In this document: piece after piece, positions 17,112-18,877 of the stretch
Position numbering within the stretch: position 1 is the first letter of the stretch
How the letters are laid out: the number at the start of each line of letters is the position of its first letter
Assembly (NCBI GenBank): GCA_050733915.1
Contig: JBOHUH010000190.1
Span: 918 to 64,917, forward strand
Reading direction: 5' to 3'
DNA from: Candidatus Dormibacteria bacterium
Lineage (GTDB): Bacteria > Chloroflexota > Dormibacteria > Aeolococcales > Bog-877
DNA: 64,000 bases
Made by a program: the position numbers and the translations under genes
Notes under the pieces: model-generated
What the model was told of the DNA's origin: nothing
Seen by the model: the letters and a program-made list of their open reading frames with translations, nothing else
The model's database searches: none

Positions 17112-17144
17112 GACAAAAAGAAAAGCCCCGGGGCTGCCGGGGCT
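17112..17144 (-). terminator. Intrinsic terminator / trp attenuator hairpin upstream of trpE
   Basis: On minus strand AGCCCCGG-ggctg-CCGGGGCU (8 bp perfect stem) followed by UUUUCUUUUUGUCC; 24 nt after leader stop, 10 nt before trpE RBS. Confidence 0.8.
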
Positions 17145-17168
17145 TGGTGTTCGCGCTAGCGGTCGACG

Positions 17169-17240
17169 TCAGGCGCGGGCGGACACTTCACCCCCGGTGG
17201 GCCAATTCCGCCAACTTGCCGCGACCGTCACTGCTGCCAT
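17169..17240 (-). CDS. trpL: trp leader peptide (23 aa, MAAVTVAASWRNWPTGGEVSARA) upstream of trpE
   Basis: ATG 9 nt downstream of CACAAT -10 box; two Trp codons (WRNW); stop 24 nt before terminator hairpin; paralogous to the trpD leader (same length, shared SWR.W.P...G....RA pattern); lies in frame within the tail of ORF 17169..18377. Confidence 0.7.
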   Translation of the reverse strand: MAAVTVAASWRNWPTGGEVSARA

Positions 17241-18278
17241 AGGCCCGGCATTGTGAGCCTCGGCGGGCCGCGCGTCAAGTCCCGGAGGCAGCAGGCCCCG
17301 GGCCCCCGCCCGTGGCGCCTCGTGCCCCACGTACGGGTCAGCCTCCCGGGGCGCCAGCGCGCCGCCGCCGTCTCGGAGACGCCAGAGCAGGATGCCCAGC
17401 AGCGCTACCAGGGGAGCGGTGTCGGGGTCGGTGGCGATGCCGGTGGTGATGCTGCCCATGGCCTGGCCCAACACCCAGAAGGGAACCGAGACCAGCACCC
17501 CCGCCAGCAGGGCGGGGCGGCGGAGCGGCCGCCACCAGATCCCGAGCCCTACTGCCACCTCGACCACGACCACCAGCAGAAGTGACGCCAGCGAATGCAC
17601 GTAGGCCTGATGTGCCGCGGCGTAGTCGAGCTTGGACAGGGGGCCGGGCAGGTCCTGGGCCGCGGTTTGGAGGTTGTAGGCGAGCACCGCGCCGACCCCG
17701 TAGCGGATGGGGATGTGCAGAGCGGCTCCCAGGAGCCAGTAGCCGCTCCAGGTGAGGCGGGCGGCGGTGAGCCCGGCCCTGGCACCCCGCCGCAGCGCGA
17801 CCAGGCCGATCAGCGAAAGCACCGCGTACATGAGCGACGATCCGGGTGCCCCTCCCTCGCTGAGGGCGGTGCCAGTGGCCATGAAGCCCAGGCCCTCCCC
17901 GAAGACCCACACCGCCAACCCCCAGCCGAGGCCGAGGAGCAGTCCCGCGGTCCTGGTCCTCCTGGAGAAGAGCAGTGCGCCGGTCAGGACTTGCACCGCC
18001 ACGATCAGGGCGTTGAGGGCGACCAGGTGGGCCGACTCGATCCCCGCGGCCGTCGCGAGGAAACCACGCAGGCCGGGCGGCTGGTACATGTACGCGGAAT
18101 TCCAGAGCACCCCCTGGCTGAAGGCGCTGGTGAACATAGCTGGCTGCAGTTGAAGGGCGGCGTCGAGCAGCCAGAAGAACCCGAGACCAAACCAGAGGAG
18201 GCGAAAGCCGTCTGGCTGGGCGCTTGGCTCCACCGCCGCAGGAGCCGATCCCACCGATCGATCCGACCGCCGCGCCAT
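17169..18278 (-). CDS. Integral membrane protein, unknown function (about 10 TM helices); C-terminal tail reads through trpE leader region
   Basis: Hydrophobic helices through ORF 17169..18377; start provisionally at MARRSDRSVGS; true 3' end uncertain because no stop occurs before the leader stop codon. Confidence 0.6.
   Translation of the reverse strand: MARRSDRSVGSAPAAVEPSAQPDGFRLLWFGLGFFWLLDAALQLQPAMFTSAFSQGVLWNSAYMYQPPGLRGFLATAAGIESAHLVALNALIVAVQVLTGALLFSRRTRTAGLLLGLGWGLAVWVFGEGLGFMATGTALSEGGAPGSSLMYAVLSLIGLVALRRGARAGLTAARLTWSGYWLLGAALHIPIRYGVGAVLAYNLQTAAQDLPGPLSKLDYAAAHQAYVHSLASLLLVVVVEVAVGLGIWWRPLRRPALLAGVLVSVPFWVLGQAMGSITTGIATDPDTAPLVALLGILLWRLRDGGGALAPREADPYVGHEAPRAGARGLLPPGLDARPAEAHNAGPMAAVTVAASWRNWPTGGEVSARA
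17250..17278 (-). promoter_or_regulatory. Putative sigma-70-type promoter for trpE leader transcript (TTGACG-17nt-CACAAT)
   Basis: Minus strand TTGACG cgcggcccgccgaggct CACAAT gccgggcct ATG; identical architecture and spacing to the promoter upstream of the trpD leader. Confidence 0.6.
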
Positions 18279-18709
18279 CAGCCCAGTATCCGACGGAGGC
18301 GCGGTTGACCTCGTCGAGGAGGGGGGCGGCAAGCCCCTCAAGACCGCCGGGAGCGACAGGCTGGCGCACCACTTCACTCGGTCCGCGAACTGCTGAGGCC
18401 TTCGCGAGAACCCAGGTCGAGGACGGCGCCTCCAGGTGGGCTATCGGGGTGGTCCAGGACCTGCCTCCAACAGCCTCAAGTCACCAAACCGCTTGACGCC
18501 AGGTCAGATCTCCCCATGCCGGCACCGAATAGTCACTCGGTCGTCTGATCTCAGTTGCAGGCCCCGCCTCCGACGCATCTAGCGAGCCTGGGCTGGACGC
18601 GCCGGAAACCAGCTACCGCGGCGGGTGACCTGCCACCGCCCGGCGCACGGCTGACCCCGGACTGTGGACGTCGAGCGGCTCGTCGAAAGCCCCAGCGGAG
18701 CGCCGCGGT

Positions 18710-18738
18710 TTGACTAAGCGTCCTCTTTGGTTCACAAT
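18710..18738 (+). promoter_or_regulatory. Putative sigma-70-type promoter for trpD leader transcript (TTGACT-17nt-CACAAT)
   Basis: TTGACT aagcgtcctctttggtt CACAAT caccgcgtc GTG; 9 nt between -10 and leader start, implying a leaderless or near-leaderless leader mRNA. Confidence 0.6.
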
Positions 18739-18747
18739 CACCGCGTC

Positions 18748-18819
18748 GTGACCGGCGCATCCTTCTTCAGCTGGCGGTGGACCTGGCCCTCCTGGGGTTC
18801 GGCACCGTCGCGCGCCTAG
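18748..18819 (+). CDS. trpL: trp leader peptide (23 aa, (M)TGASFFSWRWTWPSWGSAPSRA) upstream of trpDCFBA
   Basis: GTG start 9 nt after -10 box; four Trp codons within 8 codons (W R W T W P S W); TAG stop 25 nt before terminator hairpin. Confidence 0.75.
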   Translation: MTGASFFSWRWTWPSWGSAPSRA

Positions 18820-18844
18820 TCAGACCGACCGCAAGCGACCACCG

Positions 18845-18877
18845 AGCCCTGGGCAACCGCCCGGGGCTTTTTCATTT
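18845..18877 (+). terminator. Intrinsic terminator / trp attenuator hairpin upstream of trpD
   Basis: AGCCCUGGG-caaccg-CCCGGGGCU (9 bp stem incl. one G-U) followed by UUUUUCAUUUCAU; about 125 nt upstream of trpD start. Confidence 0.8.

Follow-up and report, generated by a model that had tools for sequence, protein, structure and literature searches.

How does a bacterium whose tryptophan genes are split into two divergent halves control both of them? The question is raised by a 64-kb stretch of a Candidatus Dormibacteria MAG (here called the window), whose TrpE is 100% identical to a protein of an NCBI Candidatus Dormibacteria MAG. By Pfam assignment, one half (trpE, trpG, DAHP synthase, aroA, aroE, aroC and aroK-aroB) lies on the minus strand as a co-directional string headed by trpE and reaching down to about 9029, while trpD, C, F, B and A lie on the plus strand.

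15614 to 17101, minus strand: trpE (anthranilate synthase I), by Pfam
19003 to 23591, plus strand: trpD-trpC-trpF-trpB-trpA, by Pfam, in the same gene order in relatives

An earlier note on this DNA had placed a Trp leader attenuator before each half and proposed that one such unit had been duplicated. Our analysis leads to a similar answer: the locus very probably carries two paralogous Yanofsky-type ribosome-mediated (leader-peptide) transcription attenuators, one before trpEG-aro and one before trpDCFBA. The anatomy of the units, their conservation, an ORF-like leader and the thermodynamic feasibility of alternative pairings support this reading.

Upstream of trpE, we located the following elements:

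17250 to 17278, minus strand: predicted promoter (TTGACG at 17278-17273, 17-nt spacer, CACAAT at 17255-17250)
17169 to 17240, minus strand: leader ORF of 23 codons, ATG at 17240, TGA at 17171-17169, peptide MAAVTVAASWRNWPTGGEVSARA
17179 to 17197, minus strand: segment 2, CCGGGGGUGAAGUGUCCGC, from ribosome-masked folds
17113 to 17154, minus strand: segment 3, GCGAACACC, and terminator, from a terminator scan; kept by all relatives

The start codon lies 9 nt from the -10 box, and the leader contains two Trp codons (17213-17211 and 17204-17202). The hairpin begins 24 nt after the leader stop; its 9-bp stem (AAGCCCCGG, 17145-17137, with CCGGGGCTT, 17131-17123) has a folding energy of -17.1 kcal/mol and runs into the T-tract TTCTTTTT, downstream of which come the RBS GAGG and the trpE ATG at 17101. 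Because trpE has no promoter-like site other than the one ahead of the terminator, its expression requires read-through. In the masked folds, segment 2 could pair with either of two partners, the Trp-codon region (1:2) or segment 3 (antiterminator), and this segment is nearly invariant among relatives, third codon positions included.

The unit upstream of trpD is laid out as follows:

18710 to 18738, plus strand: predicted promoter (TTGACT at 18710-18715, 17-nt spacer, CACAAT at 18733-18738)
18748 to 18819, plus strand: leader ORF of 23 codons, GTG at 18748, TAG at 18817-18819, peptide (V)TGASFFSWRWTWPSWGSAPSRA
18785 to 18802, plus strand: segment 2, GGCCCUCCUGGGGUUCGG, from masked folds
18844 to 18879, plus strand: terminator, GAGCCCTGGGC / GCCCGGGGCTT followed by TTTCATTTCA, from a terminator scan; kept in relatives
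18896 to 19003, plus strand: ORF of 35 codons lying between terminator and trpD; the TGA that ends it overlaps the trpD ATG (TGATG)

Here too, 9 nt separate the -10 box from the start codon, and the leader harbors four Trp codons (18772, 18778, 18784 and 18793). The hairpin (18844-18869, 11-bp stem, -22.9 kcal/mol) starts 25 nt after the leader stop and is followed by a T-tract, and segment 2 has as its alternative partners the Trp-codon region and the terminator 5' arm CCGAGCCCUGGGC. The promoters, spacings, 23-codon ORFs and hairpins with U-tracts described in the earlier note were all found where it had placed them, in both units. It had not mentioned the small ORF ahead of trpD. We scanned 14 related trpD-unit loci, and in 10 of them a complete ORF of 33 to 49 codons occupies the same place; in 7 of those 10 it meets the trpD start in TGATG as in the window, and a Shine-Dalgarno sequence (SD) precedes most of them. 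Among the same 14 loci, no conservation of its peptide was detected. It is a predicted coupling ORF.

In the mechanism that we propose, transcription would start on the leader start codon or no more than about 3 nt away from it, and the ribosome would load without an SD. When Trp-tRNA is plentiful, the ribosome would pass the Trp cluster, reach the stop at nt 70 and cover segment 2, whereupon the GC hairpin and U-tract would form and transcription would stop about 120 nt from its start. When Trp-tRNA is scarce, the ribosome would stall on the first Trp codons and leave segment 2 free (trpE unit, GGGGGU..GUGUCCGC; trpD unit, GGGGUUCGG). The freed segment would then pair with the 5' arm of the terminator together with the nucleotides immediately preceding it, no terminator would form, and RNA polymerase would read into the trp genes. 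On an RNA carrying no ribosome, the Trp-codon region would pair with segment 2 (1:2) and the terminator would form.

Both units stand out clearly from their surroundings. A promoter scan of 16500-19500 returned these two sites and no others, the number expected from shuffled sequence being 0.0, and a regular expression describing a complete module (a TTGAC -35 box, a -10 box and a start codon 5-11 nt further on) matched only these two places on both strands of the entire 64 kb. Tryptophan makes up 0.88% of residues in ten neighboring proteins; at this local frequency, the probability of finding as many Trp codons in 22 codons is 4e-5 for the four of the trpD unit and 0.016 for the two of the trpE unit. 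None of six leader peptides looked up (0/6) was present in a collection of 15 billion proteins.

The earlier note had named in advance, as a test, the conservation of the small ORFs and hairpins in relatives, and both were indeed found upstream of trpE and trpD. From MAGs and metagenomes we collected 19 distinct trpE-type and 15 distinct trpD-type sequences, that is, 18 and 14 orthologous leaders besides those of the window, each with 2 to 4 Trp codons. Loci of relatives were obtained by protein search and contig look-ups and, for the metagenomes, by a pattern scan; a scan of a genome collection with TrpE gave one close relative among the 600 matches listed, which were otherwise distant TrpE sequences. 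Both units are kept in Dormibacteria whose TrpE is just 56 to 70% identical, and three loci (L081-L083) likewise have trpDCFBA and trpEG-aro arranged divergently, each half with its unit. Such leaders also occur in lineages with TrpE 56 to 62% identical and in an Actinomycetota MAG (L170-L173). At the same place, relatives have the promoter TTGAC(T/G)-18-CA(G/C/A)AAT in the trpE unit, and their trpD unit has TTGAC(T/G)-18-CAGAAT. The invariance of TGGCCC, GGGT and CCGGGGCTTTT was partly imposed by the search pattern in the case of the metagenome loci, but the same motifs are present in loci fetched through proteins (L001, L081-L083). About 60 human-gut contigs from the metagenome pattern scan, with an identical 81-nt match and an ORF ending IPFWP/TPFWP, were set aside as unrelated.

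Relatives additionally carry a third unit of Phe/Tyr type (F-T-Y-R-Y), overlooked in the earlier note; in the window, neither a third unit of this type nor any further leaderless module was found. Neshat et al. are said to have described, in 2014, the Corynebacterium glutamicum aroR leader upstream of aroF, an aromatic-amino-acid leader on a shikimate-pathway gene. We take aroR to be the nearest analogue of the F-T-Y-R-Y unit, which is absent from the window.

The proposed duplication of one attenuator unit is borne out by the similarity of the two units and by their identical architecture. They share 105 of 162 positions (65%; z = 7.6 against dinucleotide shuffles), align gap-free over the first 76 columns, and have in common a 23-codon ORF, a stop at nt 70 and a terminator arm starting at nt 96-97. 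Across the collected sequences, mean identities are 0.75 among trpE-type units, 0.80 among trpD-type units and 0.56-0.57 between the types. Judged by these sequences, the two units are old paralogues. We considered whether their likeness could instead reflect convergence under the shared constraints of promoter consensus, Trp codons and a GC hairpin. Outside the promoter, the Trp cluster and the stem, the likeness is indeed modest (27/43 identical, z = 2.4). However, both units contain motifs that function would not force on them (TGGCCC-N5-GGGT, CGCG-N-CT before the stop, and GCGA-N-CACC-N-AGCCC), and the identical ORF length, the matching stop and terminator positions, the gap-free columns and the overall z score also oppose convergence, which we consider unlikely. 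Concerted evolution as a general process was rejected, identity between the two types being alike within genomes (0.57) and between genomes (0.56). Local hints of it were seen only in L092 and L084.

The leader ORFs appear to behave like translated ORFs. Their start codons switch between ATG and GTG and their stops among TGA, TAA and TAG at fixed positions across units, their lengths (21 to 23 codons) vary in whole codons only, and all 34 of 34 units hold 2 to 4 clustered, in-frame UGG codons. While codons 2-8 are only 24 to 67% identical between genomes, the Trp cluster is retained, and from this cluster up to the terminator identity runs at 71 to 95%, no lower than in the adjacent trpE coding sequence (70 to 75%). 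The -10 hexamer lies 8 to 10 nt from the start codon in all units. Since no SD fits into this gap, from which a purine-rich SD is absent, leaderless or near-leaderless translation is the natural inference. The 9-nt gap of the window slightly exceeds the usual distance from -10 to transcription start, and a 5' UTR of 1 to 3 nt is as likely as a true 5'-AUG; initiation of the leaderless kind and the position of the start site are predictions from this geometry.

In codons 9-23, third positions are conserved as much as first and second ones, which indicates a constraint on the RNA. This could mean that selection acts on the RNA and not on the peptide, and that the leader RNA itself is what a small molecule, an uncharged tRNA (T-box-like) or an RNA-binding protein (TRAP-like) recognizes, the ORF being incidental; the covariation described below neither proves nor excludes other folds of this kind. 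Yet conservation at the RNA level is expected anyway for segments 1 to 4 of a leader-peptide attenuator, and starts and stops kept through substitutions, whole-codon lengths and universal in-frame UGG clusters speak against an incidental ORF. Moreover, TRAP-type (G/U)AG repeat arrays are absent from the sequence, and cmscan of 14000-24000 found no match to Rfam Trp_leader (RF00513), T-box or any other leader family at E<=10. That scan returned eight sub-threshold chance hits, the best at 29.6 bits against a gathering score of 50, and the sole hit overlapping a unit was a sub-threshold microRNA precursor (17214-17281, plus strand). We regard direct sensing as very unlikely.

RNA folding, which the earlier note had suggested for finding mutually exclusive pairings, gave the 1:2 / 2:3 / 3:4 logic once ribosome positions were masked. 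With the mask on the first Trp codons, an antiterminator formed in every unit, and the segments put forward earlier, CCGGGGG (trpE) and CCUGGGG (trpD), turned out to be its 5' strands. Under this mask, the antiterminator of trpE units takes up 5-7 nt of a terminator 5' arm 9-10 nt long, and that of trpD units 9-11 nt of an arm 9-11 nt long; when the mask was moved to the last Trp codon or to the stop, the antiterminator was lost. These folds were run on transcripts ending before the terminator 3' arm. When the full-length RNA is folded with masks, the terminator in most cases still has the lowest energy, and therefore antitermination must be kinetic, as in E. coli. Kinetic competition between the structures and a response to tryptophan are predicted.

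The two units of the window differ in how well their antiterminators are distinguished from chance. That of the trpD unit beats 500 of 500 shuffles in pairing and energy jointly. For the trpE unit, the number of paired arm nucleotides was equaled in 19% of shuffles, and pairing together with energy in 5.8%, so that its antiterminator is not clearly better than chance in GC-rich sequence. No trpE-type unit has fewer Trp codons than its two, and of these the first alone is so placed that segment 2 would become free. The 1:2 hairpin is present in minimum-energy folds, but untranslated trpD-type RNA often folds into the antiterminator instead, so that 1:2 may not be the default state in the absence of translation. 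Across the alignment, the named helices are 85 to 93% paired against 17 to 57% in slid controls; for 1:2, 93% of cells are paired against 32 to 58%, with one compensatory change. In the 19-sequence trpE-type alignment, each structure tested (antiterminator and 1:2) showed a single compensatory pair, no better than column shuffles. Such sparse covariation says nothing for or against the helices, which are compatible with the alignment.

The trpE unit has one further peculiarity, overlooked in the earlier note: its leader forms the 3' end of an ORF of 402 codons (17169-18377, minus strand), in the same frame and without a stop in between. The public record annotates the following gene in this frame:

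17169 to 18254, minus strand: membrane-protein gene of unknown family, annotated by NCBI as a 361-aa hypothetical protein

The frame continues through the promoter and leader to the leader stop, which the 361-aa protein shares. The supposed leader could therefore be a mere C-terminal tail of the membrane protein and the hairpin the terminator of that gene, with no separate attenuator. We find this hardly credible. The same promoter, leader and terminator precede trpE in loci that have no membrane gene (L001, L081, L083), and the -35 box of L001 is closely preceded by an in-frame stop. The conserved domain of the membrane protein ends near LLGILLW and the tails of its homologues stop before the promoter and leader part, while the closest homologue lies in an unrelated context, not beside trp genes; on these two grounds, the idea that the membrane gene is functionally tied to trp was rejected as well. 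In addition, trpE would be left without a promoter unless the hairpin were read through, and an in-frame position has a 1-in-3 chance, and at a GC content of 70% stop-free runs are common. Being a tail and terminator does not preclude being an attenuator, and the terminator of the trpE unit probably also ends transcripts of the membrane gene. It is even conceivable, though rather doubtful, that the last 23 codons of the membrane protein serve as the Trp leader on read-through transcripts, the ribosome finishing that protein acting as the sensor and the hairpin as both terminator and attenuator. If so, transcription arriving from the upstream gene would be Trp-conditional without need of the embedded promoter.

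Lastly, both types conserve W-P along with the residues at the C-terminus, as an arrest peptide (TnaC-like; W-x-W-P...G..S.R(A/D)) stalling the ribosome on free tryptophan might require, but induction by free tryptophan is the wrong direction for biosynthetic genes, synonymous positions and the untranslated 24-25 nt past the stop are equally conserved, and distant units alter the peptide (L171, WRWPSWVSVSTRL; L173, WRWSSGSTSPAPPRV) while keeping the fold logic, which makes this reading extremely improbable.

The attenuators favored here would share their logic with E. coli trpL as Yanofsky's 1981 work is outlined in PMC4007540: a short ORF with clustered Trp codons, 1:2, 2:3 and 3:4 helices, a terminator before the first trp gene that is more stable than the antiterminator, and a kinetic choice between them. 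E. coli differs in having a 5' UTR with an SD, a leader of 14 codons and just one attenuator, which serves one trpEDCBA operon, whereas the leaders of the window have 23 codons and leave no space for an SD, and the unit is present twice; the units show no sequence similarity to trpL and no Rfam match. The earlier note overstated the novelty of a matched, leaderless pair, since a leaderless trpL has been published, and so have matched pairs of attenuators acting on split trp operons (PMC8079986, PMC4007540, PMC13434334, PMC1262725).

In Streptomyces lividans and S. venezuelae, trpL1 upstream of trpE is leaderless, with a W-W-W cluster and a hairpin with a U-stretch (PMC8079986; PMC1262725). These organisms share with ours the Trp cluster, the hairpin with U-tract, a high-GC genome, membership in the Terrabacteria and, if our prediction holds, the leaderless state of the leader, but their leader has 18 codons (peptide MFAHSTRNWWWTAHPAAH), trpE is monocistronic, and the other trp genes have no paralogous copy. 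The Actinomycetota MAG L173, in turn, has a leader of the W-R-W kind whose construction matches that of the Dormibacteria units. Pseudomonas aeruginosa has two leader-peptide attenuators, trpL1 (trpE) and trpL2 (trpGDC), which share the motif RWRWRA encoded by the same nucleotides and whose Trp codons were shown to matter for attenuation (PMC13434334). As in the window, they sit on two separately transcribed parts of the pathway; unlike there, the loci are separate and not divergent, the two leaders are of unequal length with Trp at codons 10/12 and 18/20, and the leaders are not reported to be leaderless. In Corynebacterium diphtheriae, candidate classical attenuators precede trpB1EDGC and trpB2A (PMC1262725; PMC5784534), one on each trp operon of the same genome, and a leaderless leader peptide is documented there (ilvB). 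Gene order and leader (MTNMNAHNWWWRA) differ from ours, and no transcription start site was found for its trp leader. Deinococcus deserti, which belongs to another phylum and for which no paralogous pair is described, makes fourteen leader peptides from leaderless transcripts that gene-prediction software had not called; its trpEGD leader transcript starts 1 nt before the start codon (PMC4007540). The units of the window are likewise unannotated, one leader having been absorbed into a hypothetical membrane protein in the public record.

To our knowledge, Dormibacterota, an abundant soil phylum, has no cultured representative and is known from MAGs only, and we found no description of regulation in this phylum in the literature. 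The two units are real; their mechanism is textbook, and what is new is its occurrence in this phylum. While our understanding of how attenuation works is unchanged, the leaderless form of classical leader-peptide attenuation would hereby be extended to Dormibacterota. The two units and the Phe/Tyr-type unit of relatives form a signature by which aromatic-pathway regulation and promoters may be annotated in these MAGs, and they constitute indirect evidence for SD-independent, leaderless initiation in the phylum. Overall, they offer a natural paralogue pair for the study of how attenuators diverge after duplication.

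Reading nucleotides 16900 to 19100 of the window on both strands showed that every promoter, leader ORF and hairpin element claimed in the earlier note is present. The two units, each a promoter, a short Trp leader ORF and a terminator, precede trpEG-aro (trpE unit) and trpDCFBA (trpD unit):

17278-17250, minus strand: trpE-unit promoter, TTGACG (17278-17273), 17 nt, CACAAT (17255-17250), then 9 nt to the start codon
17240-17169, minus strand: trpE-unit leader ORF MAAVTVAASWRNWPTGGEVSARA, ATG at 17240, 23 codons, TGA at 17171-17169
17145-17123, minus strand: trpE-unit terminator stem AAGCCCCGG/CCGGGGCTT with T-tract, 24 nt after the leader stop
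17101, minus strand: trpE start, ATG with a GAGG RBS
18710-18738, plus strand: trpD-unit promoter, TTGACT at 18710, 17 nt, CACAAT to 18738, then 9 nt to the start codon
18748-18819, plus strand: trpD-unit leader ORF (V)TGASFFSWRWTWPSWGSAPSRA, GTG at 18748, 23 codons, TAG at 18817-18819
18844-18869, plus strand: trpD-unit terminator stem with T-tract, 25 nt after the leader stop

When the 3-kb region was scanned for consensus elements, these two promoters were the only promoter-like sites found (0.0 expected from shuffled sequence), and both terminators were recovered. A regular expression for the whole module, run over all 64 kb on both strands, matched the trpE and trpD units only. Given a Trp content of 0.88% in 10 neighbouring proteins, the chance of two Trp in 22 codons (trpE unit) is P = 0.016, and that of the four in the trpD unit is P = 4e-5. 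Pfam identified the flanking genes as trpE, trpG, DAHP synthase, aroA, aroE, aroC and an aroK-aroB ORF on the minus strand, and as trpD, C, F, B and A on the plus strand. The aroK-aroB fusion, at the end of the trpEG-aro string, is one 583-codon ORF (9029-10780, minus strand) with shikimate kinase and 3-dehydroquinate synthase domains.

We then compared the window with related loci (L-numbers). A Candidatus Dormibacteria MAG encodes a protein 100% identical to the window TrpE, and the next relatives among the matches listed are 56 to 70% identical, mostly from Dormibacteria MAGs and soil metagenomes. Contigs L081 to L083 were retrieved via TrpE and hence without bias towards the leader. The TrpE-retrieved contigs share the divergent layout, in which trpDCFBA runs one way and trpEG, with aro genes behind it, the other way (~580 bp between the gene groups in L081 and L083). 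Each of L081 to L083 carries both units, with trpE-type leaders including MTQTSALVWWWSWPDGGEVSARD and MVKICALVWWWSWPAGGEVSARD and trpD-type leaders including MASRVTLSWRWYWPDEGSVPSRA and VTGRCCGSWRWYWPNEGSVPSRA, each starting 9 nt behind a TTGAC(T/G)-18-CAGAAT motif. Scanning metagenome contigs for the pattern yielded further copies, ten of them as divergent pairs sharing a contig, and with further look-ups the set grew to 19 trpE-type and 15 trpD-type sequences, all distinct. The small ORFs and hairpins thus recur in related loci, the comparison by which the earlier note had proposed to check its reading. Leaders of the same build were found in the more distant L170, L171 and L172 (TrpE 56 to 62% identical). 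Since L173 (2780-2952), an Actinomycetota MAG with a 59% identical TrpE, has TTGACG-17-GACAAT, ~10 nt and ATG MRGMHGTWRWSSGSTSPAPPRV, followed by a GC hairpin and a weak U-tract, this type of unit reaches beyond Dormibacteria.

Some contigs stood apart. Dormibacteria contig L170 has tandem trpE paralogues (3001-4488 and 4882-6393); a trpE-type leader precedes the second only, with trpG next, and the first is preceded by a hairpin only. W-rich short ORFs 5' of trpE in an Ignavibacteriaceae MAG (L004, ...SGWWWGV...), a Clostridia MAG (L021, MLYTKRWWRP...) and an unclassified bacterial MAG (L067, MKKEFFYWWF) may be Trp leaders of other phyla that have escaped annotation. About 60 human-gut contigs (within L085-L169) shared an identical 81-nt pattern match, with an ORF ending in IPFWP or TPFWP, which appears unrelated to the trp units.

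The leader behaves as an ORF. Every unit has 21 to 23 codons with two to four in-frame UGG; start (ATG/GTG) and stop (TGA/TAA/TAG) codons alternate at fixed positions, and lengths differ by whole codons only. In the protein-fetched loci, codons 2 to 8 are only 24 to 67% identical. Identity is 71 to 95% between the Trp cluster and the U-tract, which equals or exceeds the 70 to 75% of the neighbouring trpE coding sequence. Third positions of codons 9 to 23 are conserved as much as first and second ones. Judged on sequence, a leader with a spacer N terminus and an RNA-constrained 3' part would be expected to look like this. None of six leader peptides looked up occurs in a collection of 15 billion proteins, indicating that they are called by no pipeline, as had been anticipated. 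The -10 box lies 8 to 10 nt from the start codon in every unit, and no purine-rich SD was seen in this gap in any unit inspected. Initiation is therefore SD-independent if these promoters are used, and is likely to be leaderless or nearly so, with a 5' end at the first base (A/G) of the start codon or 1 to 3 nt before it.

The earlier note overlooked that a 402-codon ORF (17169-18377, minus strand) has the trpE-unit leader as its in-frame 3' end; this ORF encodes a multi-pass membrane-like protein without a Pfam match. In the NCBI record of the same MAG, a 361-aa hypothetical protein spans promoter and leader up to the leader stop codon, so that in the public annotation the leader has become part of it. 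About 50 homologues were found, the named ones mostly from Dormibacteria. Those aligned have a common core that ends near LLGILLW; their tails vary and all finish before the promoter/leader-encoded part, and the closest (65% identity) also ends earlier and does not adjoin trp genes, indicating that the fusion is lineage-specific. The fusion probably arose incidentally from the placement of a gene between the two units, stop codons being scarce at a genomic GC content of 70%. In L001, an in-frame stop immediately 5' of the trpE-unit -35 box makes the leader ORF free-standing.

Untranslated RNA folded into a 1:2 hairpin (Trp-codon region and following codons) plus the terminator. We next folded transcripts cut before the terminator 3' arm with a ribosome mask reaching 12 nt past the first base of the A-site codon. 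Masking the first Trp codons freed segment 2 (GGGGGU...GUGUCCGC in trpE units, GGGGUUCGG in trpD units), which then paired with the terminator 5' arm and the conserved GCGA(A/C)CACC directly before it, sequestering 5 to 7 of the 9 to 10 nt of the arm in trpE units and 9 to 11 of 9 to 11 nt in trpD units. This pairing was lost with the mask at the last Trp codon or the stop codon. The divergent units of L170 to L173 behaved the same despite different sequences, and CCGGGGG and CCUGGGG, nominated beforehand as antiterminator segments, proved to be the 5' strands of the antiterminators. In most full-length masked folds the terminator was still the minimum-energy structure; the choice must therefore be kinetic, as in E. 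coli. In untranslated trpD-type RNA the antiterminator was often favoured. The window trpD-unit antiterminator was better than 500/500 shuffles; that of the trpE unit was matched by 5.8% of shuffles and not better than all. By explicit pair counts the helices are compatible with the alignment, being 85 to 93% paired versus 17 to 57% in slid controls; with almost no compensatory changes seen, covariation carries no information on them. According to the folds, a ribosome stalled on the first Trp codons would let segment 2 sequester the terminator 5' arm, and one at the last Trp codon or the stop would abolish the antiterminator. Both units are very probably Trp-responsive leader-peptide attenuators. 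The window trpE-unit leader has two Trp codons only (SWRNW; 17202-17213, minus strand), against three or four in most relatives (VWWWSW), and the first alone is suitably placed for freeing the antiterminator; sensing may be weakened in this copy.

The proposed duplication of an attenuator unit was supported. The window units are identical at 105 of 162 positions (z = 7.6) and share 23 codons, a stop at nt 70 and a terminator arm at nt 96-97; outside promoter, Trp cluster and stem the likeness is weaker (27/43, z = 2.4). In the alignment of all 34 units, columns 1 to 76 are free of gaps. The two units can with high confidence be called paralogues. Units of the trpE type share a mean identity of 0.75 with one another, and those of the trpD type 0.80. 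A trpE-type and a trpD-type unit average 0.57 when both come from one genome and 0.56 when they come from two, indicating that the duplication is older than the lineage split and that the copies evolve independently; overall, these averages show no concerted evolution. Two mosaics, a trpD-type unit with a trpE-type terminator loop (L092 6983-7110, plus strand; GGAACCCTCC) and a trpE-type unit with a trpD-type tail (L084 2388-2515, minus strand; TTTTTTCATTTC), hint at occasional gene conversion between paralogues.

Two further elements adjoin the units. A complete short ORF separates the trpD-unit terminator from trpD in the window (18896-19003, plus strand, 35 codons) and in 10 of 14 related loci scanned (33 to 49 codons; including L081, L082, L106, L128, L134, L138 and L161). 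In most, an SD (GGAGG/AGGAG) directly follows the U-tract, and in the window and seven relatives the ORF ends in TGATG overlapping the trpD start. Because its peptide is not conserved, this ORF has the look of a spacer for translational coupling. L081 (8075-8345), L082 (8081-8351), L083 (8075-8345) and L171 (5069-5333) carry a third, putatively leaderless module between trpG and the gene for a chorismate mutase, TTGACA-18-AACATA-9-ATG, with a 33- to 34-codon ORF, a conserved F-T-Y-R-Y (F-Y-G-Y-R in L171) and the terminator GGCGUGGAGCGGGCUCCGCGCCUUUUUU in L081 to L083; L171 keeps the hairpin without the U-tract. This is presumably a Phe/Tyr attenuator of the aro genes. Module and chorismate mutase gene are both absent from the window (site 15017-15048), so that the shikimate genes there directly follow trpG, behind the Trp attenuator.

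No Rfam family matched at the locus, and a full-text literature search combining Dormibacter, tryptophan and attenuation found nothing relevant. Leaderless translation and a matched pair had been considered special, but both have precedents. Leaderless trp leader peptides are known from Streptomyces lividans, with trpL 5' of trpE documented by RNA-seq (PMC8079986), and from Deinococcus deserti, where one of fourteen documented leaderless leader peptides serves trpEGD (PMC4007540); C. diphtheriae has a documented leaderless ilvB leader (PMC5784534). Paired attenuators on separate trp gene groups are likewise predicted on both trp operons of C. diphtheriae (PMC1262725) and found in P. aeruginosa, where trpL1 precedes trpE and trpL2 trpGDC, with a common RWRWRA motif from the same nucleotides and codon-replacement experiments (PMC13434334). 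Overall, these data confirm the original observation and support its interpretation. What is new is the absence of any annotation, the phylum, and the divergent back-to-back arrangement of clear paralogues.
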